Shown: positions 985 to 14,161 of the stretch, one piece after another | Layout of the letters: each line of letters opens with the position of its first letter | Numbering within the stretch: position 1 is the stretch's first letter | Assembly: GCA_001823925.1 (NCBI GenBank) | Contig: MHWB01000009.1 | Location: 25,086-89,085, forward strand | Length of the DNA stretch: 64,000 nucleotides | Direction: 5' to 3' | Source of the DNA: Candidatus Zambryskibacteria bacterium RIFCSPLOWO2_01_FULL_39_39 | GTDB taxonomy: Bacteria; Patescibacteriota; Minisyncoccia; Phycocordibacterales; WO2-35-19 | Program-made: the position numbers and the translations under genes | The notes under the pieces: model-generated | The model's input: only the letters and a program-made list of their open reading frames with translations | The model's database searches: none | What the model was told of the DNA's origin: nothing

Positions 985-1713
985 TCAATATGTGGGGGTG
1001 CTTATATTTTCCGATTCCATGCTTATATCTTCAAAATGTCTGCTCTGATTTACTCGGAGCATTCCCTGTTTTACTAATTCTAGCATAGCCAGAAAGCTCA
1101 CTATAACATTAACTTTCTCCGCTTTACCAACATGGGCGAAGTCGGAAAAGCTCGTTTTCAGGCTAGTCTGTACTCTGTCTTTTAATTTGTCTACCATTTC
1201 TTCTAAACTCATTATTTTTTGTACTACCATTTTAGGCAGATCTTCTATTTGTTGAGGTATATTTTGAAGCGCTTCCCTAAGTGCCCTCTTGAGGGACAAT
1301 AAGGTAATATCTGGCGTTGGAGCAAATACTACATTTATTTCCTTTCTCTCTTTTGCAAAATATAAAAAATTGCCAAACATCCTTTCAATATTTATTGATA
1401 ACTCTTTGTATTTTCTATAAGTAATTAGTCTGTTTTCCAAATCTTTGATACTTCCCTGTTCCTCGGTGGTGAGTGAAAGGTTTGGCAAAAGAGATTTTGA
1501 TTTTATCAAAAGCAGTGTCGAAGCAATCAAAATAAAATCAGCCGAGTCGGCTATCGGGAATTCTTCAAACGATTTTATATGTTCAATAAACTCATCAGCG
1601 ACGGCAGAGAGTGAGACATCACTTATATGGAGTTTTCGTTTTTCAATCAAATCTAAAAGGAGCGTAAGTGGCCCCTCAAACTCCCCCACCCTAACTTTAA
1701 AATCTGGATTCAT
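985..1713 (-). CDS. scpA: segregation and condensation protein A
   Basis: 242-aa ORF with the ScpA/kleisin-like N-terminus (LLDLIEKRKLHISDVSLSAV). Confidence 0.8.
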   Translation of the reverse strand: MNPDFKVRVGEFEGPLTLLLDLIEKRKLHISDVSLSAVADEFIEHIKSFEEFPIADSADFILIASTLLLIKSKSLLPNLSLTTEEQGSIKDLENRLITYRKYKELSINIERMFGNFLYFAKERKEINVVFAPTPDITLLSLKRALREALQNIPQQIEDLPKMVVQKIMSLEEMVDKLKDRVQTSLKTSFSDFAHVGKAEKVNVIVSFLAMLELVKQGMLRVNQSRHFEDISMESENISTPTY

Positions 1714-1717
1714 TTTT

Positions 1718-3115
1718 CTATTTACCCCCTTCTCTTATTTTAATATGGAGTTCTCGGAGTTGAGTCTCAGAAATCTCAGAAGGAGCGTTCATCATCAAAT
1801 CTTTACCCTCGCCGGTCTTTGGGTAAGCTATCACCTCTCTGATGTTAGGTTCGTTTTGAAGTATCATTACAATGCGGTCAATACCAGGGGCAAAACCTCC
1901 GTGTGGCGGTGCGCCATATGTGAAAGCTTCTAACATGTGGCCAAATTTTTTCAAAGTTTCCTCGTCTGAAATATTGAGAAGTTTGAAAACTTGTTTTTGT
2001 TCAGCTCCGTCGTGGATCCTGATAGAACCCGAAGAGAGCTCATAACCATTTAAGACTAGGTCATAAGAGTTGGCGCGAATGTTGTATAAATCTTCACCTT
2101 TCATAAACTTCTCTTTATCTTCTGGTTTAATTGAACAAAATGGGTGGTGAGCAGCGGCGATGGAACCATCATCTTTTTTCTCAAACATAGGAAAGTCTGT
2201 AATCCAAGCAAAAGCCAATTCGTCTGGATCATTTTTATCTTTTCTTAAATCTGGTTTATCGGTGCCATATTTTTTCATAACTTCGGCAAAAGTGAATCGT
2301 GGGAAAGGTGTCTCTGTATTTTTTTTGTTTGGGTACAAAGTTTTAACGAGCTCAATAAACATGGCCTCGGTGTAAGAGAGTACATCTTCTTGTTCCACAA
2401 AAGACATCTCAAAGTCCAACTGAGTAAATTCTGGTTGCCTGTCCCCGCGGGAGTCCTCATCGCGCATGCACCTGGCAATTTGAAAATATTTTTCAAAACC
2501 AGCAACCATTGAGAGTTGTTTGAATTGCTGCGGTGACTGTGGCAAAACATAAAATTTACCATGGTAAAGTCGGGATGGTATCACGTACTCCCTAGAACCT
2601 TCCGGGGTCCCTTTCATCATGATTGGGGTTTCAATTTCTACGAAATCATTTTTATGCATATAATCGCGGAAAAAAGAAATTATTTTATCTCTCATTCTAA
2701 TATTTTTTTGCATTCTTTCACTTCTTAAATCCAAATATCTGTATTTTAATCTAGCATCCTCACTCACCTCTTTTGTATTTGAAGAGATGTCAAAAGGCAA
2801 AGTTTCTGCTTTGTTTAAAACTTCAATATTTTTTACCTCGAGTTCAATATCGCCGTTTAAAACCCCTGCTTTAATATTTTTTTCAGGTCTTTTGTTTACA
2901 ACTCCGGTGACAGCTAGGACCCACTCGGTGCGCATCTCTTTGGCCGTTTCAATGGCTAGGCTTTTGGGCAGTACGACACACTGTACCAACCCTGAAAAAT
3001 CCCTCATATCCATAAAAACCATTTTCCCCTGGTCGCGCCTTACGTTTACCCAACCCTTAATAGTGACTTCTTTTCCTAGATTCTCCTTTAAATCTTTTAT
3101 ATAAGTTCTTTTCAT
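1718..3115 (-). CDS. lysS: lysyl-tRNA synthetase, class II
   Basis: 465 aa with an OB-fold N-terminus and class II motifs (FYVLPQSPQ, GGFAPGIDRIVM). Confidence 0.9.
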   Translation of the reverse strand: MKRTYIKDLKENLGKEVTIKGWVNVRRDQGKMVFMDMRDFSGLVQCVVLPKSLAIETAKEMRTEWVLAVTGVVNKRPEKNIKAGVLNGDIELEVKNIEVLNKAETLPFDISSNTKEVSEDARLKYRYLDLRSERMQKNIRMRDKIISFFRDYMHKNDFVEIETPIMMKGTPEGSREYVIPSRLYHGKFYVLPQSPQQFKQLSMVAGFEKYFQIARCMRDEDSRGDRQPEFTQLDFEMSFVEQEDVLSYTEAMFIELVKTLYPNKKNTETPFPRFTFAEVMKKYGTDKPDLRKDKNDPDELAFAWITDFPMFEKKDDGSIAAAHHPFCSIKPEDKEKFMKGEDLYNIRANSYDLVLNGYELSSGSIRIHDGAEQKQVFKLLNISDEETLKKFGHMLEAFTYGAPPHGGFAPGIDRIVMILQNEPNIREVIAYPKTGEGKDLMMNAPSEISETQLRELHIKIREGGK

Positions 3116-3119
3116 TTTT

Positions 3120-4091
3120 TTATATTACCCCTATCGCTCTTTTAACCGCTATCATTTTTTGGCTCGCTTTTGCACGGGCTCTCTCTTTGCCTTCTGCCAA
3201 AACTTTTTGCACAAAATTTAAATCTTTAGCGATTTCCTCCCTTCTTTCTCGTAATGGTCTTATAAAATTTTTCAAATCTTCAATCAAAATATCTTTCAAT
3301 ACTTTATACTTACCCTTATTTTCCTCATAAATTTTATCGAGCTCGGCCACAGATCTGAAAAGTTTATGGATATAAAAAACATTTTCTGGGTATTCGGCTT
3401 TGGAATCAGTGACAATGCTCATTACCGCTTTCTCAATCTCTTCATCACTAGCGAAAAGTGGGATAGTGTTGTTATAACTCTTGCTCATCTTTCTGCCATC
3501 GGTGCCGGGCACGGTCTCTACATCTTTTATAATGAGAGCTTCGGGTAGTTTAAAAATTTCACCTGTGGTGAGCGAAGTCGAACCACTGAAAATCCTGTTA
3601 AATTTTTCGGCCGTGTCTCTAGCAAATTCTATATGTTGTTTTTGGTCCTGTCCTACTGGCACTACATCTGTGTCATATAATAAAATATCTGCCGCCATCA
3701 ACATTGGATATGTAAAAGTGCCGGCGCTCACATCTTCTTCTCCTCCTTTCGCCATAGCATCTTTGTAAGCATGAGCTCTTTTTAAATAAGGGACAGTGGT
3801 GATGGTATCAAAAATCCAGGCAAGCTCGGTATGCTCTGGCACATCTGATTGTTTAAAAATTATTGATTTTTTGGGGTTTAGACCTATAGCCAAAAAGTCA
3901 ATTGCCACATCCAACGATAGTTCTCTCATCTCCTTGGCATTTTGGATAAGGTTTAAAGCGTGATAGTCCGCTATCATAAAGTAGCTCTGGTACTCATTTT
4001 GAAGCTCCACAAACTGACGCATTGCACCAAAATAGTTTCCAATATGTGGCCGCCCAGTCGGCTTTACTCCTGAAAGTATGGTTTTTTGCAT
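3120..4091 (-). CDS. trpS: tryptophanyl-tRNA synthetase
   Basis: 323 aa with HIGNY (HIGH-like) and KMSKS motifs. Confidence 0.9.
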   Translation of the reverse strand: MQKTILSGVKPTGRPHIGNYFGAMRQFVELQNEYQSYFMIADYHALNLIQNAKEMRELSLDVAIDFLAIGLNPKKSIIFKQSDVPEHTELAWIFDTITTVPYLKRAHAYKDAMAKGGEEDVSAGTFTYPMLMAADILLYDTDVVPVGQDQKQHIEFARDTAEKFNRIFSGSTSLTTGEIFKLPEALIIKDVETVPGTDGRKMSKSYNNTIPLFASDEEIEKAVMSIVTDSKAEYPENVFYIHKLFRSVAELDKIYEENKGKYKVLKDILIEDLKNFIRPLRERREEIAKDLNFVQKVLAEGKERARAKASQKMIAVKRAIGVI

Positions 4092-4134
4092 GTGATTTGG
4101 CGAAATTATGTGACTTCATAATAGCAAAAATTCA

Positions 4135-5007
4135 TTATTTTGCACACCAGAGGGCAAAAATAGACATAGGTAGGAGTCTGGTTGAATTCTCCTGTTTTAT
4201 GACAAGCTCGCCTGATTCAATTCTACCATTCAAACCTTTTGTCGTGTCTCTAAGTAAATTAGCGACAGATAAAGAAGAGAGTTCGGTAGCATACATATTG
4301 AAAATCACGAAAAGTGGCTCATCACTCAAAATTTCTCGGCAAGCTTTCAAAAGTTCTGGCAATTTTTCTTCTATTTTCCAAATCTCCCCCTTTGGCCCTT
4401 TTCCAAACTGAGGCGGGTCCATAATCAGGCAGTCGTATTTTTTACCCTGCCTCTTTTCTTTATTTATAAATTTAAGAACATCATCTAATATCCAACGGAT
4501 GGGAGCGTCTTCTAATTCGGATAGTTTTTGGTTTTCTCTTGCCCAATCAATGCTAGCTTTTGAAGCATCTACGTGAGTGATTCTCGCTCCCGCCCTTGCT
4601 GCCACCAAACTGGCGATTCCTGTGTAGCCGAATAGGTTTAAAACATTTAAACTATTCGGAATTTTCAATCCGTTCAACAAGCTCAGGACAGGTTTAGAAT
4701 TTTCAGTTTTCAATTTTTCTGCAATCCACTGCCATTGCGATATTTGCTCTGGGAAAATGCCAATATGTTTTGAACCACTTTTAAATTTTATTTTGGCTTT
4801 GACTCCTTCAAAAATATCTACAATCGTCTCTAAAACTGTTTCTGTATTTCTCCACTCATTTTCTGACAATTCTCTTTTCCACCAAGCTCTCGGCTCGGCT
4901 CTCACAATCCTTACTCCCCTTATTTCCTCCAGCTTCTTTTTATCCCCACAATCCAAAAGCTTGTAACCTTCCATCTCCCCCGCCCATATTTTGGTTGAAT
5001 CTTGCAT
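4135..5007 (-). CDS. class I SAM-dependent RNA methyltransferase (RlmI/RlmK-like)
   Basis: 290 aa with a GYTGIASL SAM-binding glycine motif and the DPPQF motif. Confidence 0.55.
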   Translation of the reverse strand: MQDSTKIWAGEMEGYKLLDCGDKKKLEEIRGVRIVRAEPRAWWKRELSENEWRNTETVLETIVDIFEGVKAKIKFKSGSKHIGIFPEQISQWQWIAEKLKTENSKPVLSLLNGLKIPNSLNVLNLFGYTGIASLVAARAGARITHVDASKASIDWARENQKLSELEDAPIRWILDDVLKFINKEKRQGKKYDCLIMDPPQFGKGPKGEIWKIEEKLPELLKACREILSDEPLFVIFNMYATELSSLSVANLLRDTTKGLNGRIESGELVIKQENSTRLLPMSIFALWCAK

Positions 5008-5019
5008 ACTTCTACAATA

Positions 5020-6672
5020 TCATAAAAACAAGCGGACGAGGCGGAGGTCTTCGTAGGAGTATTTGGGGCCGAGCAATTCTTTGACTTTCGCCAGTTTATA
5101 CCCTCCACCCTCACTTACGCCCACCTTGTGAAAAGCATTATAAATTTCTTTAAATTTATTTTTAGTGATACTACTTTGGAGATTGTATATATTGTAATTT
5201 GGATCTTTTTCTTTTATTTTTTCTATATGATCTATGATCGTGCCAAGTTTGAGTCCCCTTTCTTTGGCAATATCTTTCAAGATTTTTCCATCATCTAACA
5301 TTTTTTTGGTTTCGTCCACTGTATCTATTTTTCCCTTGCCCGCCGTAGCGGGAGCGGAGGAGGGTCCCCTTATTTTTATGGCAAATTCATTATGCATTTT
5401 AGAAAGCTTTTCTTCCCCCATTGTTTTAATATGAAAAGAATTGGTTTTGGAAAGGTCTCTAAATGTTTTATCAAATCCCAAAACCTCCTCATTTACTCGG
5501 AGCGCCATGTCATTTAATCCTTTAAGAAAAAGCCCTTCTAGCGAGCGGACTCGAGAAAGGGCCACATAACCCATACCCTTTTCAAAAGAGGCGGATAAGT
5601 CAATTGAAGCGGCGTCAAGTGACATCCCCTGGCTTTTGTGTACGGTGATGGCCCAAGCTAAACGCAAGGGGTATTGGGTTATTTCGGCCTTGCTTCTCCC
5701 ATCTTCTTCTATTCGCCATGTTTCTCTTACTACATCTATAATCTTGCCAGAAAGGATTTTTACTTTTATTTCTTCAAACACGCACTTTTCGACTGTGCCC
5801 AAGGTACCGTTGACGAAGCCCTCTTCAAAATTATTTTTAACAAACATTACTTTGGCGCCAACCTTTAGTCTCAAAGTTTCGGGCGCTAGGCAACTCTTTT
5901 TCAAAGATTCTACCAAATTATGCCTACCCCTTTCCTGCATTTCATATTCAAAAACTTTACCAGAAATTTTTGAAAGCTCTGCTTCGTTTTCACTATTTAC
6001 ATCTTTATTGTGGGAATAAAGTTTGGTTGGTTCAAAATCTGCTTTTTTATTAAACCTAGTCTCCAAAACTTTTAGAGTCTCTTCTGAGACCGTGGCATCC
6101 CTTACCGCGTTTAAAATTTCCAAGTATTTCAAATCGCTTTGTCTATGCTGTTCTGAAAGGTAGCAGACTTTGAGCTTAAGATTTTTCCAGGTATCGGAGT
6201 GATAAGCAAAAAATACTTCCGGCTCAAAAGATTTTCTTACTGGTGGCAATTGAAAAAAGTCTCCGCAAAAAACTACCTGCATACCCCCAAAGGGCTCTAC
6301 TGAGTTTTTTATTTCCTTAACGATCCTATCTAAGAGATCAAGACGGTAGTGGTGAAGCATTGATATCTCGTCAATAATCAGGACAGACGCTTTTTTGACC
6401 TTGTCTTTTACGTGTTTTTTTTCAACAATTTCTTGTAAATCACCTTTACTTAAACTGTCTCTTACTCCCAAACCAGACCAAGAATGAATAGTGATGCCGC
6501 CCATACCGGTTGCAGCGATGCCGGTGGAAGCAGTGATGCCTATATAAGCGTTAAGATTTTGCAAATAATTTATATATTCTCGTAAGACATAAGTTTTGCC
6601 ACTACCGGCGGCGCCAGTTAAAAATACGTTTCTACCGGTTTTTAAGATGTCCAGAGCTTCTTTTTGAGTCAT
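5020..6672 (-). CDS. PIF1/RecD-family ATP-dependent DNA helicase with a C-terminal HTH extension
   Basis: 550 aa. Walker A GAAGSGKT, DEISM and VHKSQGMSLD helicase motifs. Confidence 0.7.
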   Translation of the reverse strand: MTQKEALDILKTGRNVFLTGAAGSGKTYVLREYINYLQNLNAYIGITASTGIAATGMGGITIHSWSGLGVRDSLSKGDLQEIVEKKHVKDKVKKASVLIIDEISMLHHYRLDLLDRIVKEIKNSVEPFGGMQVVFCGDFFQLPPVRKSFEPEVFFAYHSDTWKNLKLKVCYLSEQHRQSDLKYLEILNAVRDATVSEETLKVLETRFNKKADFEPTKLYSHNKDVNSENEAELSKISGKVFEYEMQERGRHNLVESLKKSCLAPETLRLKVGAKVMFVKNNFEEGFVNGTLGTVEKCVFEEIKVKILSGKIIDVVRETWRIEEDGRSKAEITQYPLRLAWAITVHKSQGMSLDAASIDLSASFEKGMGYVALSRVRSLEGLFLKGLNDMALRVNEEVLGFDKTFRDLSKTNSFHIKTMGEEKLSKMHNEFAIKIRGPSSAPATAGKGKIDTVDETKKMLDDGKILKDIAKERGLKLGTIIDHIEKIKEKDPNYNIYNLQSSITKNKFKEIYNAFHKVGVSEGGGYKLAKVKELLGPKYSYEDLRLVRLFL

Positions 6673-6952: not shown

Positions 6953-8626
6953 TTAATTTATTGGAAGTTCGATTGTAAAGGTAGTCCCCTTGCCTACTCC
7001 TTCTGACACCACCTTAATATCACCCTGATGGGCTTCTGCCATTTTTTTGGCTATATATAAACCTAGACCGGTGCCGATGACGTTGGTTTTGCTGGCGTCT
7101 TTGGTTCGAGAAAATTTACTAAATAGTTTGTTTATTTCACTAGGGTCAATACCAACTCCGCTATCTTTGACCGCTATCTTTACCTGCCTAACGGCAGGCA
7201 GGTTTTTATTTTCATCTTCAAATACAGAAATTTTAATACTGCCATGGATTGTGTATTTCACTGCATTATCAATAACGTTACCGATCACCTGTTTGATTTT
7301 ATTCCTATCAGCATTTATTTTGGCAGAAAAATTGAATGGCTCTAATTCCAAAGACAAACCTGCATCTAAAATATTTGGTTTAAGTTCATTTGCCACTTCT
7401 TTTACAAGCTCTCCTACATCAAAGATACTTTTTTCATAAACCATCCTGCCTTGCTCAATCCGCGAGATGTTTAAGAAGTCCCCGACTATATTTATCAAAT
7501 TTTGGCAAGATTTTCTAATAGTCTCTACCGAATCCTTTGCCTTCTGTGGTAATACGCCAAAATCACCCTCCAAAAGCATTGAGGAGTAGCCCTTTATGGC
7601 GGTGAGTGGCGCCCTTATTTGGTGGGTGGCAAGCGATAAAAACTCTGACTTTAAATTATCCAACTCCCGCAGTTTTTCATTTGCCCTCTCAAGATCCTTC
7701 GCCAACACTTCAATCTTTTCCCTTTGTTCTACCTCCCTTTTTACCGAGCGGACTAATAAAATTCCAACGATAAGAAATAGAATCAAAGTAAGAGAAACAA
7801 TAATTCTTACGTTATTTATATCATTTACAAAAAGTACAGCACAAAGTGCAATCCATAAAGCCGTTATTAAAGCTTGAGTTCCGATTAGTTTGACATTAAA
7901 TGTTTTAAATTTGACTATTGAATAAACTAAAAATCCGGCAAATATAGGCATTCCAAATAATCCATACTGACCCAATTCCCAATTCTCTGTAAAACTTCCT
8001 ATTATATTTCCCCATGCGAAAGCAAATAAAAATAACACGACACCAGTAGAAAGGGAGAATATTTCTTTCCGATTCAAATTTCCTGGCTTATGAAGTTTTC
8101 GTATTGAATACCCAATAATTATTATGGTCATAAGAATTTCTACTGCATATGTATAGTAGAGAGCTATTGGACCCTCTACGCTAAGGCATGTAGAAATATC
8201 AAATCCTGACAAACTGTACTTTGTTGGTACAAAAATTAGCAGTGGCGTATAAATCAAAAATAAAAATAATTTAGAAATAAAAGGTAAATCTTTCTTTTCC
8301 AAAAATAAATATAGTAAATAAAACCCCCCTATATATACTAATGGCTCAATAAGTATAATAATAGACCACACAAACATTACCACATCACTTCTATTGCTTG
8401 CCCAAAAAATTGAATCTAAAAATACCCATAGAGCAAAAGTGATTATGGTTACAAAAAGAACCCTATTTGGAATGGAGTTTTTATTCTGAAAAAATACAAA
8501 AAAAGCTAACAAGAGAGAAATTATAATTATTGGTAAATGAGAATAGTAAACTAGTGGAGCGACATCTGCACCAAACAATAACCATTTTGGTCCTTCAAAA
8601 TTACACAATTCTATTAAAGTTTCCAT
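6953..8626 (-). CDS. sensor histidine kinase with a multi-TM N-terminal domain
   Basis: 557 aa. The HisKA H-box (LSLATHQIRAPL) and HATPase_c motifs (DSGVGI, GTGLGL) follow about 8 TM helices. Confidence 0.8.
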   Translation of the reverse strand: METLIELCNFEGPKWLLFGADVAPLVYYSHLPIIIISLLLAFFVFFQNKNSIPNRVLFVTIITFALWVFLDSIFWASNRSDVVMFVWSIIILIEPLVYIGGFYLLYLFLEKKDLPFISKLFLFLIYTPLLIFVPTKYSLSGFDISTCLSVEGPIALYYTYAVEILMTIIIIGYSIRKLHKPGNLNRKEIFSLSTGVVLFLFAFAWGNIIGSFTENWELGQYGLFGMPIFAGFLVYSIVKFKTFNVKLIGTQALITALWIALCAVLFVNDINNVRIIVSLTLILFLIVGILLVRSVKREVEQREKIEVLAKDLERANEKLRELDNLKSEFLSLATHQIRAPLTAIKGYSSMLLEGDFGVLPQKAKDSVETIRKSCQNLINIVGDFLNISRIEQGRMVYEKSIFDVGELVKEVANELKPNILDAGLSLELEPFNFSAKINADRNKIKQVIGNVIDNAVKYTIHGSIKISVFEDENKNLPAVRQVKIAVKDSGVGIDPSEINKLFSKFSRTKDASKTNVIGTGLGLYIAKKMAEAHQGDIKVVSEGVGKGTTFTIELPIN

Positions 8627-8685: not shown

Positions 8686-9087
8686 ATGATTTTAGTTAAA
8701 ACAAAATTAGGGAAAAGTATTAAACATGGAATAGGACTTTTGGCAGATCAATTTATTCCTAAGGGTACAATAACGTGGGAGTATCATCCCCTTTTTGATT
8801 CAGCATTTACCGATGAAGAAATTAATCAAATGTCCGAACCAGCAAAAAAACAATTTTTTCATTACGCATATTTTGATAAAGATTTAGATAAACACGTTTT
8901 GTGTTTTGATGACCAACGATTTATTAATCATTCTGCTAAGAAAGAAGATATAAATATTCAGTCTTTTACTCGTAAAGACATTGCTCTCAAAGATATTCAT
9001 CTTGGAGAAGAATTATTATGTGATTATGATCAATTTGATAATACTTATTTTGATCGCATTAATCTAGATAGATCAAATCTTATTTGA
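8686..9087 (+). CDS. SET-domain protein (putative lysine methyltransferase)
   Basis: 133 aa with GIGLLADQFIPKGTIT, RFINHS (NHSC-like) and GEELLCDYD (ELxxDY) SET motifs. Confidence 0.55.
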   Translation: MILVKTKLGKSIKHGIGLLADQFIPKGTITWEYHPLFDSAFTDEEINQMSEPAKKQFFHYAYFDKDLDKHVLCFDDQRFINHSAKKEDINIQSFTRKDIALKDIHLGEELLCDYDQFDNTYFDRINLDRSNLI

Positions 9088-9670
9088 TTTTTTTAGAAAA
9101 TCTAGTCTTTGGAAAATAAAGAAGTGTTGCAACTGAACCACTGGTTATAGACATATATATTGGATATATGAGTACTCCAAATGTTGCAGAACCTATTGCA
9201 CCAAAATTCAATACATTACCAATAAATGTAAGTAGCCAAGAAAATCCACTCTCACCCGTAGGTTCTAAATAGGATTTTTTGATTGTAGGTAACATGCCGA
9301 CAAAATCCATACTTAAATTAAGGATTAAGGCAATAACTGGACTTTTAAATATATACCATAGTACTAGTCCCGTCATTGATACAAAGAAGCATGTTATATC
9401 AAAAGGGTTTAAGCCACCCTCTCCATATTTAATAGAAAGTATTGCTACTATGAAAATTCCAAACACATCAGCTACTGGAACCCAAATGGTATCTACTGCT
9501 CCAGAGAAATAATAACTAATTCCAGTAACACTCCCTACTATAGTGAGTATCCACCAAGTTGCTCTGCTTGGTTTTGTTTCTCCTTTTAAAATTGAGATTA
9601 TATATACAATATAAGCTCCGAAGGATATGATTCCTGCTACAACTCCAAATATATAAGTTATTGTAAACAT
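9080..9670 (-). CDS. integral membrane protein, unknown function
   Basis: 196 aa with 5-6 predicted TM helices. Confidence 0.45.
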   Translation of the reverse strand: MFTITYIFGVVAGIISFGAYIVYIISILKGETKPSRATWWILTIVGSVTGISYYFSGAVDTIWVPVADVFGIFIVAILSIKYGEGGLNPFDITCFFVSMTGLVLWYIFKSPVIALILNLSMDFVGMLPTIKKSYLEPTGESGFSWLLTFIGNVLNFGAIGSATFGVLIYPIYMSITSGSVATLLYFPKTRFSKKIK

Positions 9671-9673
9671 TTT

Positions 9674-9802
9674 TTATTCTAACGCGGTACCATCTTCAAT
9701 GTAAAAATCCTTATCAACCGTTGTTCTTTTATATGTCATTACTACAGACACTATAATAGAGATAAAAAATATAGTTATTAAAATTTTTGATTTTTTATCC
9801 AT
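9674..9802 (-). CDS. small single-TM protein (42 aa), hypothetical
   Basis: ATG at 9800-9802; reads MDKKSKILITIFFISIIVSVVMTYKRTTVDKDFYIEDGTALE. It stops 4 nt before the start of the 196-aa membrane protein. The six-frame ORF track (60-aa minimum) does not list it. Confidence 0.25.
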   Translation of the reverse strand: MDKKSKILITIFFISIIVSVVMTYKRTTVDKDFYIEDGTALE

Positions 9803-9849
9803 TTGAATATTTTAATCCCCTCTTAATAAAATTATGTTCTATATCTTGC
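9803..9849 (+). repeat. direct repeat copy 1 (duplicate of the speH 3' end)
   Basis: About 47 nt with roughly 85% identity to 11089-11135; the core cccctcttaataaaattatgYtctatatcttgc is identical apart from one Y position. Confidence 0.6.
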
Positions 9850-9984
9850 CTGTCTGGTTTTAATATAACTCTTGGATTATTTTTGTCAACTATCAAAACT
9901 CTCTAGCCACAACACCAAAATTCAAACACACTTTAATTATACAGTAAAATCTATCCTCTAACAAAATTTTTGTTTATAAAAAAA

Positions 9985-10419
9985 TTAGACTGCTAATTCC
10001 AAGAGTTTTTTCCTATAATTACCAGTGATCTTATGATCTGCCCCGGGAATTACAACAATTCTCCATTTACATTTGAGAGTTTTGGCTAATTGAAGGTTAT
10101 TCTTGTACACCCATTTTTCTTTTTCTCCGACTATAAAAATGACTTCTTTAGCTTTCAATGTTTTTAGAGAATGAGCAATAGGTGTCATTGAACAGAGAAT
10201 GAGAGTTTTGACAAATTTTATTTCTACATAGTCACATGCTAAAACAGCTCCCATCGAAAACCCAATGACAGTATCATAATTTCCACGGGGGAGACGAAGA
10301 TTATCCCATGATATATTATATACTTTCATATATTTTGAAAGAACACAATAATCCTTCGCATGTTCTCCTAATCCTGGTATAAACAATGTTTTATTTTTTG
10401 TAGTGATTATCTGTTTCAT
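9985..10419 (-). CDS. small alpha/beta-hydrolase fold protein
   Basis: 144 aa with the GFSMGA nucleophile elbow and a C-terminal PGADHK histidine. Confidence 0.5.
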   Translation of the reverse strand: MKQIITTKNKTLFIPGLGEHAKDYCVLSKYMKVYNISWDNLRLPRGNYDTVIGFSMGAVLACDYVEIKFVKTLILCSMTPIAHSLKTLKAKEVIFIVGEKEKWVYKNNLQLAKTLKCKWRIVVIPGADHKITGNYRKKLLELAV

Positions 10420-10456
10420 AAACTATTTTAATATTTTATAATATAAATATTGTTAA

Positions 10457-10497
10457 ATATAAAAGAGCGGTAAGCATCACGTGATTGCCTCCGCTCT
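10457..10497 (-). terminator. rho-independent terminator for the DUF397 gene
   Basis: AGAGCGG...CCGCTCT stem followed on the minus strand by TTTTATATTT. Confidence 0.5.
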
Positions 10498-10561
10498 CTC
10501 TGGTTGGTTCGTGACTTCCCCTTAAGGAAGTGGGTAAGTGCCTCTGCCAAAAGTGAATTTG

Positions 10562-10780
10562 CTAGGAGAGTTCAAATTCTCCCGCCTTGACCGCACCAAT
10601 GAAGGCGGTCCATTCTCTCTTGTTAAAGAACACAGTTGTCTTACCCTCATCGAGGGTGGAACGAACAGCGACGCCTTCGGGCCTGATAGCCACGGAGACA
10701 CACGGGACGTGTTTTCCCGACTTCCATTTTTTCACATCTGGAGTCTTGAAATCAGAGTCTTGAACGAGAAAGGTTTTCAT
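10562..10780 (-). CDS. DUF397-domain protein
   Basis: 72 aa with the DUF397 pattern (W.KSGKH..CVSVA.....V.VRST.....TVFF....W.AFI.....GEFE). The segment is GC-rich within an AT-rich context. Confidence 0.55.
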   Translation of the reverse strand: MKTFLVQDSDFKTPDVKKWKSGKHVPCVSVAIRPEGVAVRSTLDEGKTTVFFNKREWTAFIGAVKAGEFELS

Positions 10781-11080
10781 AACCCATCCTTGGATTGAAA
10801 TTCAGCTACCGAGAGCTGCCTACTCTTTAATATACTCTTTTAAATTATTCTGTCAACTCTATTACGCATATCTCTATGACAACAAAATATTATGTGCTAA
10901 GCTTTATAACAGACCAAATCGTAGTTCTTGAAGATCACAACAAGGTACATTCCGCAAAGTAAGGTAGTATGAAGAAATATCCAATCTGTCCTCCGACTCC
11001 AGTCCTGCCGTCGTAACCGAAAGGGGCGTTCACATGTGTGCGCCCCTTAAATATATATGATAAAGAAAAACAAAAATTTT

Positions 11081-11458
11081 TTAATCGTTTGAATACCTTG
11101 TCCCCCTCTTAATAAAATTATGCTCTATATCTTGCAGGTCAAACTTTTCTTTAAAATAATTTAATATAAATTCATTATCCATTCCGTTTTTGCAGGTATA
11201 AACATCTGCACTTAAAAACCCGTTATCTGGAAAGGTATGAATACTTATGTGGCTTTCGGCAATGACTACAAACCCGCTCCAACCCCCCGGATCCTTCTTG
11301 TCATTGTTTGGTGCAGAATAAACAACCGGCTCAGCAAGTTTGTGCATTCCTAGCTGTTCTGGAAGTTCATTTAGACATTCTAATACTAGCTCTTTGTTAT
11401 TGAGTTTTTCTTTTGATCCACCATATCCGTCTATTGTCAGATGTTCTCCAAAGTGCAT
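11081..11458 (-). CDS. speH: S-adenosylmethionine decarboxylase proenzyme (archaeal-type, SpeH)
   Basis: 125 aa with the ESHISIHTFPD processing and active-site motif. Confidence 0.8.
   Translation of the reverse strand: MHFGEHLTIDGYGGSKEKLNNKELVLECLNELPEQLGMHKLAEPVVYSAPNNDKKDPGGWSGFVVIAESHISIHTFPDNGFLSADVYTCKNGMDNEFILNYFKEKFDLQDIEHNFIKRGTRYSND
11089..11135 (+). repeat. direct repeat copy 2 (native speH 3' end)
   Basis: Matches 9803-9849; here it encodes ...DIEHNFIKRG of SpeH. Confidence 0.6.
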
Positions 11459-11473
11459 ACAAAAATTATACCA

Positions 11474-11725
11474 TTATTTTATCTCAAAAACTTTATTTTT
11501 TGAGGAGGCGCCGGAGATTAGGGTAATTCTTGTAGGAGAAGTATTAAAATATTTTGCCAAGGCTTTGATTATTGCTTGGTTTGCCCTGCCTTCTACTGGA
11601 GGTTCCTTTACAGATACTTTGAGATGTAAATCTCCTTCTTTGTTCTGCCAGAGGTTCTGCTGGGCTTCTTGTTTTTCCACCTTCTCCTCTTTTGCACTCG
11701 GCTTTGCTTTTACAAACACTCTCAT
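11474..11725 (-). CDS. DUF167/YggU-family protein
   Basis: 83-aa UPF0235-like sequence (LKVSVKEPPVEGRANQAIIKALAKYF). Confidence 0.6.
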   Translation of the reverse strand: MRVFVKAKPSAKEEKVEKQEAQQNLWQNKEGDLHLKVSVKEPPVEGRANQAIIKALAKYFNTSPTRITLISGASSKNKVFEIK

Positions 11726-11746
11726 TATCTTATCAGATTTTTTATC

Positions 11747-14161
11747 CTAAAACTCCTTGTAGTTTGGGTCTACTGCAAAGTTTGCTGTTACAGATTTATC
11801 ACTGTTCATAGTTAGATCACAATCTCCTCTTCCAGAGCAGGACCCGCTCCATCCTGTAAATATCCTACCCGGTGCAGCTGTGGCTTGTAGGGTTACATCC
11901 TCGTCTGGATCATAATCTGCCTGACACACAGAACCGCAACTTATAGCTGGGGTACCCTGGGTACTTGATACTGTCCCCTGCCCTGCTTTGGTTACATTGA
12001 GTCTGTAGCCAATAGGTGCACAAACTGGCACAGCAATTCCTCCCGTGGCATTTTGAGTAGCGGCTATAGGTGAACTATTTTGACCACCAGCAGTTGCTCG
12101 CACCCAATAGTAGTAAGTGGTACCTCCAGCTGGAGTTGTGTCTGTAAAAGTTGTGCCTGATACTCCAGTACCAGCAAGCAGAGGGCTGGCTGGGAAAGTT
12201 CCGGGTGGAAGCGTATTTCTATAAATATTGTAAGTGACAGGTGTACCTCCACCATTGGAAGCTGTCCAAGTAATCCGAACATCTCTTGCAGGACAGACTC
12301 CTATCAAACTACCAGAAACGCTACCAGGATTAGTAGGAAGCACATTATAAGTTACTGCTACAGTCTTACTCCCGCCCGTTACAGCAGGCGTTGAACCATT
12401 ATCAGAAACCGTTACAGCGCACAAATTACTACCAGCAGGCATACTTGAAGGAATGGGGACACCGACAGCTCTTACGGTCCCTGGAGCCCCTTGAGCCAAA
12501 GGTCCGCCTGTAATACTACCAGGACTTCCGACGCCACCAATCGTACACCAAGTCTGATTTGTGCTTGCACGCCAGTTTAGATTGCTACCTACTGCTCCAG
12601 AGTTAGATATAGTAGCGTTTGATGTGGCGGGGGCAGCCTGCCCAATTTGTCTACTAAAAAACATAGTTGCTGGAATAAGTCCTATACTTGGTCCTGATCC
12701 ACCAGATACAGTCACAGTAACTGCATCAGTAGTATTGCCCGGCTGACAAGTAAGTGTGTAAGTACGATCTGCAACTAGAGCTCCAGAAGATTGACTACCA
12801 GATGTACCAGTCCAAGGACAAGACCCAGATGAACAAGTTACTGCACAAGAAGTTGCGTTTGTTGATGTCCAAGAGATAGTAGAAGCGCCACCGCTTATTA
12901 CCGAAGTTGGAGTTGCGGTTATATCTGGAAATGCATTTGCAATACTACACATATACTCCACCACATTTCCTCCACCTCTACGAAAACTGTATGTCCTGTT
13001 AAATGGATCTACTGCAGAGGCTGGAGTTCCCCAAGCTGGAGCTGGGCCGGGAAAGACATTCCAACTTGCGCCCGAAAGTTGATACATCCCATTACTTTGG
13101 GTAGAAACTATTGCATTACGGAAATTTGTAGAAGGGATATGGACAGGTTGATTGACTACCGAAGAAAATAGTCCGATATTGGTCCAGCCCGGAAGACTGT
13201 TCCAACTACAACTTTGCAGAGCTGTAGCGCCAGTACAGATTTGCTCATAAATATTTCTTCCAGTAGAAGCATTTGGTGCAAAGACATTTATTGTTGCAGG
13301 TGTTGAAAAATATTTTCCAACCGGATTTTGAGAGGCGGCAAAGCTCCCGGTAACTGTGTACCAAGAGCCATTACAAACTGTCTGTCTGCTTGGTTCTACC
13401 GTGAGGAAGACAGTTGCTTCAGCGTTACACCCAGCATCACCTGTATTTGAAAGAAGTATATCTATAGGGTAAGTGCCAGGAGTAAGAGATGAAGTATTGT
13501 TTATAGTTACACCAAAAATCGTAGGAGGAAAACCATCACCATCATTATTTGTAGGTGAAGGAGCATTACAGGTCGCTCCAGCTGGGCAAGTCGGCACCCC
13601 AACATTCATTACTGTTGAACCTTGTGCTGTGTAAGCTAAACCAACCCAACCAAGATCTCCCTGGCTAACTGTAAAACTTGACCCCGAAGGATACGAGATG
13701 ATTGGTTGACCATTTGGGTCGGAACATGTAGATCCGTTTCCATTTAAAGGAAGTGTTGTGGGCCCGTCAGATATCGGATCTGAAGAAGCTCTTTCTTCAT
13801 TCCACCAACACTGTCCAAGGTTTGTGCTACAAGGCCCACCGGTTGTATAGCTACACCAATTATTAGAACAAGAAGCAGACGTGACTTGTTGTCCTACAGT
13901 TGAACAACTTGAATCACATATATAACTATCTACGCATCGAATACCAGAACAATATGTGCCTAAAAAATTCCAACTACCACCACACGCAACATCTCCTGCT
14001 ATATCATAATTATCTATTTCACAAGCACTTACAGCTGTACATTCTGAAACTGAAGCACAAGTATCTGTCGATTGAGCACTAGAATTATCTACATTAAAAA
14101 TAAAAAATAAAACCACTCCGAGTAATAAAGGTATTATTTTGTAGAGTTTACTAGATATCAT
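11747..14161 (-). CDS. large secreted Cys/Gly/Thr/Ser-rich protein with a C-terminal divergent InlB B-repeat domain
   Basis: 804 aa with a signal peptide. The C-terminal ...YRLNVTKAGQGTVSS...CGSVC....TLQATAAPGRIFTGWSGSCSG.GDCDLTMNSDKSVTANF matches the List_Bact_rpt/InlB B-repeat pattern. Confidence 0.7.
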   Translation of the reverse strand: MISSKLYKIIPLLLGVVLFFIFNVDNSSAQSTDTCASVSECTAVSACEIDNYDIAGDVACGGSWNFLGTYCSGIRCVDSYICDSSCSTVGQQVTSASCSNNWCSYTTGGPCSTNLGQCWWNEERASSDPISDGPTTLPLNGNGSTCSDPNGQPIISYPSGSSFTVSQGDLGWVGLAYTAQGSTVMNVGVPTCPAGATCNAPSPTNNDGDGFPPTIFGVTINNTSSLTPGTYPIDILLSNTGDAGCNAEATVFLTVEPSRQTVCNGSWYTVTGSFAASQNPVGKYFSTPATINVFAPNASTGRNIYEQICTGATALQSCSWNSLPGWTNIGLFSSVVNQPVHIPSTNFRNAIVSTQSNGMYQLSGASWNVFPGPAPAWGTPASAVDPFNRTYSFRRGGGNVVEYMCSIANAFPDITATPTSVISGGASTISWTSTNATSCAVTCSSGSCPWTGTSGSQSSGALVADRTYTLTCQPGNTTDAVTVTVSGGSGPSIGLIPATMFFSRQIGQAAPATSNATISNSGAVGSNLNWRASTNQTWCTIGGVGSPGSITGGPLAQGAPGTVRAVGVPIPSSMPAGSNLCAVTVSDNGSTPAVTGGSKTVAVTYNVLPTNPGSVSGSLIGVCPARDVRITWTASNGGGTPVTYNIYRNTLPPGTFPASPLLAGTGVSGTTFTDTTPAGGTTYYYWVRATAGGQNSSPIAATQNATGGIAVPVCAPIGYRLNVTKAGQGTVSSTQGTPAISCGSVCQADYDPDEDVTLQATAAPGRIFTGWSGSCSGRGDCDLTMNSDKSVTANFAVDPNYKEF

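Follow-up and report, generated by a model that had tools for sequence, protein, structure and literature searches.

Some integrase-mediated genomic islands, and integrase-less derivatives of them, target the 3′ ends of genes; they leave direct repeats made from that 3′ end, and the gene is restored by element-borne sequence. Homology-facilitated illegitimate recombination (HFIR) has been described in Acinetobacter, S. pneumoniae, P. stutzeri and E. coli, and is recognized by a microhomology of 3-10 bp at the illegitimate junction (reviewed in PMC3240628). When a circular molecule enters by a single crossover, the homologous segment is duplicated, giving "SCO" products (PMC3240628). At type VI secretion system (T6SS) effector-immunity loci, Rhs loci and contact-dependent inhibition (CDI) loci, the 3′ portions of genes are displaced, and HFIR has been proposed to account for this displacement; orphan modules occur there as well (PMC5361080). 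Here, we describe an insertion at the 3′ end of speH, which encodes S-adenosylmethionine decarboxylase proenzyme, in Candidatus Zambryskibacteria bacterium RIFCSPLOWO2_01_FULL_39_39. The DNA analyzed is a 64-kb stretch of contig MHWB01000009.1 (hereafter the window); all coordinates are positions in this window, and the genes of the speH region lie on its minus strand. An original prediction, made from the window alone, had noticed a 47-bp direct repeat around two small genes and had read it as the scar of site-specific integration. Our analysis agrees that DNA was inserted here. As to mechanism, we think it probable that homology-anchored recombination in speH was combined with an illegitimate join at a microhomology, and that no site-specific integration was involved.

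The insert and the two speH ends

The insertion is revealed by an empty site in a close relative. A search for SpeH homologues recovered a sister protein (P0024; 125 aa, 96% identical) whose C-terminus, ...DIEHNFIKRGLKYSNG, is exactly the peptide encoded by a speH relic that lies beyond the insert in the window. The sister gene is found on three contigs (L065-L067), two of them from Rifle samples, in the order yggU-speH-TM42-TM196 with no insert, and speH and the transmembrane (TM) gene TM42 overlap there by 8 nt (L065 and L066). Sister and window DNA are 90.3% identical over window positions 11725-11076 (yggU-speH) and 92-93% identical over 9849-9339 (relic-TM42-TM196). The features on which this comparison depends are as follows.

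11474-11725, minus strand: yggU-like DUF167 gene (open reading frame (ORF) list and Pfam)
11081..11458, minus strand: speH, 125 aa, intact (Pfam AdoMet_dc, 94.3 bits)
11076..11135, minus strand: repeat copy B, the speH 3′ end in use (QDIEHNFIKRGTRYSND, then stop), about the last 19 codons; 12/60 mismatches to the sister allele
9846..9889, minus strand: promoter P2 (TTGACA-16-TATATT; 11/12 promoter match) with the first ~10 nt (AGACAGGCAA) of a conserved leader
9846..9849, minus strand: distal junction, a 4-nt microhomology, GCAA, between the leader (..AGACAGGCAA) and recipient speH (..TTTGCAAGAT..), placed by three-way alignment of copy A, copy B and the empty site
9790..9849, minus strand: repeat copy A, the speH relic, which is the original 3′ end in a displaced position; agrees with the sister empty site at 56/60 positions
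9674..9802, minus strand: TM42, small TM gene (42 aa); its ATG overlaps the relic TAA (ATGGATAA), the same as in insert-free genomes
9080..9670, minus strand: TM196, membrane protein of 196 aa, the conserved 3′ neighbor in speH-TM42-TM196-SET-HK synteny (tblastn; SET, SET-domain gene; HK, histidine kinase gene)

The insert is also missing from more distant relatives. We obtained 36 related speH loci by scanning one genome per species, and eight of these (L010, L012, L015, L017, L022, L025, L031 and L036) show the order speH-TM42-TM196-SET(-)-HK without DUF397 or hydrolase genes (tblastn), with TM42 itself detected in only some of the eight and with a SpeH identity of 85% in L010. In insert-free relatives, the TM gene start overlaps the speH stop or lies within a few bases of it (in L036, ...IYG and stop / ATGGATAG). 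None of the 36 loci has another insertion, element or speH relic at the site. One of them, L023, has 540 nt between speH and TM42 and was considered as a second insertion, which was rejected on finding an extra membrane-protein gene and no speH relic. Within the window's own Rifle aquifer population, the SpeH protein has 100% identical copies on 23+ contigs, and dozens of contigs, including ones from GCA_000992905.1 and GCA_001823665.1 (Candidatus Zambryskibacteria), encode the exact SpeH, DUF397 and TM196 proteins. The insert is present on every sufficiently long contig of this population, and exact-sequence look-ups of the three proteins returned only the insert-bearing population, with no empty site. 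At the sequence level, these comparisons show that the insert is lineage-specific and indicate that it was acquired after the split from a sister population of the same aquifer. The original prediction had proposed to check whether relatives have speH directly before the small TM gene, which is so in at least eight genomes and the sister; relatives with both repeat copies, which it had named as evidence to the contrary, were not seen among the related loci compared. The empty site and the insert-free relatives together identify the repeat as an insertion scar derived from the speH 3′ end.

The repeat itself is present as predicted, with 41/47 identical positions between 9803-9849 and 11089-11135. 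A repeat search of the window extends it to 65 nt (9790-9854 versus 11076-11140; 54/65 identical, 83%; spacing 1286), although in copy A the speH homology begins only at GCAAGAT (window 9849), and repeat bases 9850-9854 are not speH sequence but part of the promoter/leader fragment. The window contains two instances, and no more, of the 33-nt core, CCCCTCTTAATAAAATTATGYTCTATATCTTGC, for which the prediction had counted one mismatch; 100 dinucleotide-preserving shuffles gave 0 matches. The insert measures at least ~1.29 kb (window 9850-11135), as its left crossover may lie further upstream.

The prediction is not supported, however, in taking the repeat for the duplication of one sequence. SpeH in the window ends in ...DIEHNFIKRGTRYSND, encoded by copy B. 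Copy A lies directly upstream of the TM42 ORF, now serving as its 5′ untranslated region; read in the speH frame it still encodes QDIEHNFIKRGLKYSNG followed by a stop, the TAA of which overlaps the TM42 ATG. Over 60 nt, copy A differs from the sister empty site at four positions and copy B at 12, compared with 28/323 in the rest of speH (Fisher tests: copy B versus speH body, p=0.019; copy B versus copy A over the same 60 nt, p=0.058). The two copies differ from each other at 9/60 positions. Eight of these nine differences are in the last 27 nt, seven of them in the tail codons after Gly, and the tail differences convert G-L-K-Y-S-N-G to G-T-R-Y-S-N-D. Both GLKY and GTRY are natural variants among relatives, GTRY being the commonest. 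Since the sister SpeH end, ...RGLKYSNG, equals the copy-A peptide, copy A is by this comparison the recipient's original speH end, displaced. Copy B (...RGTRYSND) is probably a more divergent allele imported from a closely related lineage. As the differences lie in the tail and GTRY is the majority state, each copy appears to have evolved as a working gene end; judged by their matches to the sister, which the relic resembles and copy B does not, copies A and B are two alleles.

The distal end of the insert can be placed to the base. In the three-way alignment, copy A tracks the sister empty site from GCAAGATATAG (window 9849) onward, and homology ends exactly at GCAA. Upstream of GCAA, copy A shares nothing with speH and continues as promoter plus AGACAGGCAA. 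Because GCAA is the only sequence that the leader and recipient speH have in common, the junction looks illegitimate and microhomology-mediated.

How the insert may have arrived

Based on these observations, we propose that the donor was a related Patescibacteria genome or replicon that would have carried, in order, a speH ending in ...RGTRYSND, a hairpin, a promoter-driven operon of DUF397 and a small esterase, and the head of a further promoter/leader operon. On the left, the incoming speH would have paired with the resident speH and recombined by homology, so that the working speH now has the imported tail (copy B) as its end. On the right, the join would have been illegitimate, made at GCAA between the incoming DNA, 10 nt into the leader of the next operon, and resident speH. 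Since this join point lies upstream of the resident stop, the last 19 resident codons would have been kept as a relic before TM42-TM196 instead of being deleted. Both flanks would thereby survive: the C-terminus of speH is valid, and the native 50 nt upstream of TM42-TM196 and their ribosome-binding region are still in place, to which P2 may add a working promoter. Selection for a valid speH tail and for the TM42-TM196 upstream region possibly explains why this product persisted. Alternatively, the fragment could have formed a circle at GCAA, and a single crossover of Campbell type in the 57-nt speH homology would then have given the same product. The HFIR and Campbell routes cannot be separated; both are integrase-independent and both need a donor module beside a speH end.

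Several points weigh against this proposal. No donor (a speH ending in TRYSND plus the module) was present in any collection searched, and the donor is for this reason one that we infer. Classical HFIR usually deletes, and does not duplicate, recipient DNA (PMC3240628). For a Campbell crossover, the ~57 nt of speH homology between the copies would be unfavorable, being 85% identical and free of mismatches over no more than 20 nt at a stretch. Further, the left crossover is unmapped, with mismatch density relative to the sister rising weakly from ~11230 onward, and the statistics for a foreign copy B are drawn from 60 nt (p ~0.02-0.06).

Site-specific integration, the reading of the original prediction, is in our view unlikely. 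It would make the 33-nt core an att site and the insert an integrase-less element or island remnant, with its recombinase elsewhere or lost and with an attP that carried the speH 3′ end. In its favor are the direct repeats, which derive from the 3′ end of a gene and hold a near-identical 33-nt block, the empty site, and the presence of modules of the same family in different genomic contexts. However, there is no recombinase in the insert or within 10 kb on either side. The prediction had itself remarked on the lack of an integrase, and window positions 1-24000 hold no integrase, transposase or tRNA (ORF lists, Pfam and tRNA check). Nor can the insert hide a decayed recombinase, since its non-coding stretches reach at most ~300 nt; of the two origins that the prediction had left open, an old decayed integration and a recombination product, we favor the second. 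The identity of the core is likewise ordinary: copies A and B agree at 31/33 positions, copy A and the sister at 31/33, and copy A and L013 at 30/33, so by this measure the core is no better conserved between the copies than between orthologous speH ends of different populations. The far end is a promoter/leader cut at +10 with a 4-nt microhomology, which looks illegitimate, and the site is not reused, as 0/36 related speH loci carry another element or relic there. Searches of phage, plasmid and IMG/VR collections gave no match for the insert, the hydrolase profile or the leader pattern. Thus, flanking direct repeats and an empty site are found as in att-flanked islands, but a recombinase, core identity beyond orthologue conservation and site reuse are not, and on these sequence features the insert is not a member of the integrase-driven island class. 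A transposon or insertion sequence would fit no better, given a repeat of 60 nt at 85% identity, no short identical target-site duplication and no transposase. The only inverted repeat near the insert ends (I14) is a 15-nt A/T run and was treated as chance.

Another explanation is that a staggered break or replication slippage duplicated ~60 nt of the recipient's own speH end, after which copy B diverged. We regard this as very unlikely. What speaks for it is the equal-length tail x-x-Y-S-N-x-stop (seven codons with the stop) shared by both copies, which among the loci compared at the DNA level occurs only in the window clade and the sister; close variants of equal length are present in the protein database (e.g. 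P0032 and P0048). Under this explanation, though, copy B, which is under selection, would need nine changes in 60 nt since the split from a sister that is ~8.7% diverged across speH, while the unconstrained relic is meanwhile only 4/60 from the sister. Moreover, four substitutions in two adjacent codons hit exactly the family-consensus residues T-R, and we know of no bacterial mechanism that leads to 60-nt target duplications.

It is extremely improbable that the polarity was reversed, with an old insert that the sister lost through recombination between the repeats. Recombination in the 33-nt core would restore a clean speH-TM42 junction and give exactly the sister structure, including its A-type tail. 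Insert-free sites are, however, also seen in eight or more genomes of greater distance, none of which has DUF397 or the hydrolase at the locus, and this makes insertion in the window lineage the parsimonious polarity. A loss would alter only the timing and not how the structure first arose.

Cargo, leader and neighborhood of the insert

The DNA between the repeat copies was predicted to hold an alpha/beta hydrolase gene and a GC-richer DUF397 gene, and both are confirmed by the features below.

11021..11048, minus strand: GC-rich hairpin (AAGGGGCG...CGCCCCTT) just 3′ of the speH stop, within the insert (sequence reading)
10829..10856, minus strand: promoter P1 (TTGACA-16-TATATT), that of the DUF397-hydrolase operon; fits the consensus at 11/12 positions, the joint highest score of the region
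10562..10780, minus strand: DUF397 gene, 72 aa, GC 0.49, third-position GC (GC3) 0.56 (PF04149, 28.4 bits versus a cut-off of 24)
10464..10497, minus strand: GC hairpin then T-run, between the DUF397 and hydrolase genes (palindrome; equivalents read in L048, L059, L052 and L071)
9985..10419, minus strand: minimal lid-less alpha/beta serine hydrolase, 144 aa (AlphaFold2 (AF2), Foldseek and catalytic residues)
9960..9975, minus strand: AT-rich hairpin right after the hydrolase stop (sequence comparison; a similar element follows the L052 hydrolase gene)

The DUF397 ORF is truly coding, as mismatches to one of the L048 homologues (L048b) are distributed 14/13/38 by codon position, a third-position excess. 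GC content is 0.48-0.52 over DUF397 compared with 0.26-0.36 in most neighboring 200-nt windows. The hydrolase scores below the Pfam cut-off (Abhydrolase_5, 23.1 bits versus 27), but its AF2 model has a pLDDT of 92.4, Foldseek matches it to lid-less esterases and thioesterases with probability 1.00, and Ser55 (GFSxG), Glu101 and His129 are invariant in 20 hydrolase homologues. The modeled structure confirms an alpha/beta hydrolase fold. The hydrolase has 19 detectable homologues, a word-seeded search gave only three of DUF397, and PADLOC and NCBIfam gave no match for DUF397, the hydrolase, TM42 or TM196.

The hairpin at 11021..11048 was not called a terminator by the consensus scan because its T-run is short. 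The ~160 nt between it and promoter P1 (window 10860-11020) have moderate GC and only two tiny plus-strand ORFs (28 and 15 aa), with no homologue in any locus fetched. In the spacer between the DUF397 and hydrolase genes (window 10420-10561), a strong GC-rich hairpin occurs in every module read, conserved in position and not in sequence; it could serve in attenuation, termination or mRNA stabilization.

Six modules, that of the window included, have DUF397 directly upstream of a hydrolase homologue; the others are a tandem pair in L048 and those of L059, L052 (where DUF397 is an unannotated ORF) and L068-70. In L046, DUF397 precedes a methyltransferase instead of a hydrolase, and in L071 a 27-aa acidic ORF occupies the DUF397 position. 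All detectable relatives are on groundwater or soil metagenome contigs, where they share the DUF397-hydrolase operon. The prediction had taken DUF397, as an actinobacterial-type family, for a sign of origin. In the five modules measured, however, DUF397 has a GC of 0.49-0.57 and the hydrolase 0.31-0.37, on host contigs of 0.34-0.51. As this contrast recurs whatever the host GC, the GC jump is a trait of the module, and the higher GC of DUF397 is, as far as base composition can tell, not evidence of a direct or recent actinobacterial donor. The first small gene has ~50-57% GC (GC3 up to 0.79) and the enzyme gene ~31-38% in the window, L048, L052, L059 and L046.

Other modules have features of their own. 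The L046 module (1156-5922) combines DUF397 and a 188-aa S-adenosylmethionine-dependent methyltransferase amid an AbiEii toxin gene, an IS200-type Y1 transposase and an rve-family integrase fragment, and is the only DUF397 module seen beside mobile-element genes. Each of the two tandem units of L048 is bounded by a 61-nt element (1312-1372, 2548-2608 and 3472-3532) that contains an 11-bp GC hairpin with a GAGA loop (GTGGYGGGGACCC GAGA GGGAACCCGCCAC). The element is 100% identical between units whose DUF397 proteins are 47% identical, with a third copy at 89%; we could not tell whether it is a homogenized boundary element, a repeat like the repetitive extragenic palindromic (REP) sequences or a processing site. 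In L052 (6894-6946, 7609-7647 and 8393-8478), a second copy of the AT hairpin and of the 45 nt with which the hydrolase gene ends lies 1.5 kb upstream. An acetyltransferase gene takes its final codons and stop from this copy, in another frame, and the two halves of the copy are separated by an NYN-domain gene. By its sequence, this repeat looks like the remnant of a preceding hydrolase copy, i.e. tandem-array ancestry.

The distal end of the insert belongs to a different unit. By consensus scan, P2 (9889-9862) and P1 (10856-10829) are the two best promoters of the region, each 11/12. In L048, the sequence upstream of DUF397 matches window 9900-9846, 3′ of the hydrolase, with 82% identity. This head follows the pattern TTGACA-16-TAnnnT, then 6-7 nt, then AGACAGGCAA, and in L048, L052, L053, L059, L062 (three copies) and L071 it continues into a leader of ~70-75 nt. 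The window head stops after AGACAGGCAA and runs straight into the relic, pointing toward TM42-TM196. By this alignment, window 9846-9889 is the truncated head of a next module or operon. We also considered the head as a cassette recombination site, an idea that we keep only as the speculation given below: L062, L053 and L071 carry the same head before unrelated genes, and a shared promoter/leader therefore explains it more simply.

Complete leader copies are located in L048 (1416-1488 and 2675-2751), L053 (5877-5954), L059 (7662-7744), L052 (7673-7754), L071 (7575-7652) and, on the minus strand, L062 (11144-11068, 9075-8998 and 7914-7840), and the truncated copy is at window 9889-9846. Each complete copy begins with a sigma-70-type promoter, followed by an AGACAGG start, a first hairpin (hairpin P1), an invariant ACUUU(A/G)GA and a second hairpin (hairpin P2), and CUUU pairs with AAAG in the Shine-Dalgarno region. 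Over nine sequences, 98% of cells pair in this structure and 8/17 pairs show compensatory changes; 0/500 shuffles reach these values, and slid controls pair at 43-67%. A covariance model (R1) found the L071 copy, which was not among its training sequences, at 57 bits. It found no complete leader in the window, and the window's own leader between promoter P1 and DUF397 is not a member. Rfam gave only chance-level matches in window 9000-12000 and none in L062, L048 or L059. The leader is a candidate new cis-regulatory RNA of Patescibacteria-like genomes.

In L062 (6300-12225, minus strand), three promoter-leader copies each precede a small GC-rich ORF. The first ORF encodes a 47-aa Cys-rich peptide and is followed by a 346-aa radical-SAM/SPASM-like ORF (reading of a CxxxCxxC motif) and a 209-aa HExxH protein, an arrangement that resembles a cluster for a peptide that is ribosomally synthesized and modified after translation (RiPP). 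The second encodes 64 aa ending in AIAKGQFED, and the third an acidic peptide of 36 aa that resembles the L071 ORF of 27 aa. The 4.2-kb island is flanked by a 39-nt direct repeat (6968-7006 / 11206-11244, 95%) that equals the 3′ half of the neighboring gene's terminator, and one repeat copy has a stem change, T to C, with no compensating change in the 5′ half of the stem. In sequence, this repeat resembles the two-allele repeat of the window.

One could speculate that the promoter-leader units are self-expressing cassettes (a small GC-rich ORF followed by a hairpin and an AT-rich enzyme gene) that would move between Patescibacteria via a site in the leader and with an enzyme acting in trans. 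The window junction lies in the loop of the leader's first hairpin (ACAGG-CAA/CC-CCTGT, the slash marking the junction), and the 61-nt boundary hairpins of the tandem L048 units, the boundary repeats of L052 and the 39-nt end repeats of L062 would also fit. Even so, we judge this speculation to be highly improbable.

The surroundings of the insert are those of an ordinary chromosome. Window 1-24000 encodes housekeeping or ordinary chromosomal functions, including ScpA/B, two aminoacyl-tRNA synthetases, a methyltransferase, PIF1 helicase, a histidine kinase, a subtilisin-like protease and DnaJ/DnaK/GrpE. Beyond TM196 are a SET-domain gene on the plus strand and then a histidine kinase gene on the minus strand. 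On the other side, an 804-aa surface-type protein with an InlB B-repeat domain (11747-14161) adjoins the conserved yggU-speH pair. It differs within an otherwise identical population (L002 has 802 aa at 99% identity, L008 has 779 aa at 96% identity, and in L003 the gene is broken into 574 + 229 aa) and appears to be fast-changing.

Significance and comparison with known systems

Genomes of Patescibacteria (the Candidate Phyla Radiation, CPR) are tiny, and to our knowledge gene gain in these bacteria is poorly documented. The speH insertion suggests, but does not prove, that they can gain genes by homology-anchored illegitimate recombination without an integrase. It unites a filled site, the empty site of a co-occurring sister, a displaced gene end and a base-precise junction, and it shows that an insertion can leave both neighboring genes working. 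The event is mechanistically ordinary and unusually well resolved: a recombination of a kind already known, seen here as a clean natural case in a phylum that has been little studied. It also advises caution, since neither an integrase-driven island nor a distant donor necessarily follows from a 3′-end direct repeat together with a GC-rich ORF. Two by-products may matter more: a mobile operon of DUF397 and a mini-esterase outside Actinobacteria and without an XRE partner, and a conserved structured promoter-leader before small ORFs, including RiPP-like peptides by a radical-SAM enzyme.

DUF397 has been characterized as a partner of XRE regulators in Actinobacteria and described as actinobacteria-specific, and the XRE-DUF397 pairs Scr1/Scr2 and WhiJ/BldB have been proposed to be toxin-antitoxin-like (PMC2701414, PMC10364602, PMC6262351). 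The 72-aa protein of the window carries the same domain. In contrast to those pairs, it belongs to a Patescibacteria host and is the first gene of a hydrolase operon (with a methyltransferase in L046); no XRE partner adjoins it, and the insert contains no helix-turn-helix ORF (ORF list and Pfam). The modules recall integron cassettes in being small tandem units with repeated boundary elements (L048) and varied contexts, but their units carry their own promoters, and no attC-like site or IntI was noticed on reading the sequences, which did not include a dedicated attC/IntI search.

Unlike integrase-mediated islands, the window has no integrase, its site is not reused, and its far junction lies inside a truncated promoter/leader. 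The likeness to HFIR is closer: an insert of ~1 kb with no dedicated recombinase has one end anchored by homology (the speH allele) and the other at GCAA. It differs in that ~57-60 nt of recipient DNA are kept as a duplicate and in that the event is reconstructed from natural sequences. As in a Campbell single crossover, a homologous segment is duplicated on both sides of the insert, although here the homology is only ~57 nt at 85% identity and no circular form is known. In outcome, and by analogy, the closest parallel is the displacement of 3′ ends at T6SS effector-immunity, Rhs and CDI loci. There, as in the window, an incoming replacement 3′ portion arrives with cargo, and the old 3′ end and downstream genes are pushed down and kept. 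What sets the window apart is that speH is a housekeeping polyamine gene and no polymorphic toxin, that a single event is seen rather than serial displacements in an array, and that the cargo holds no immunity gene.

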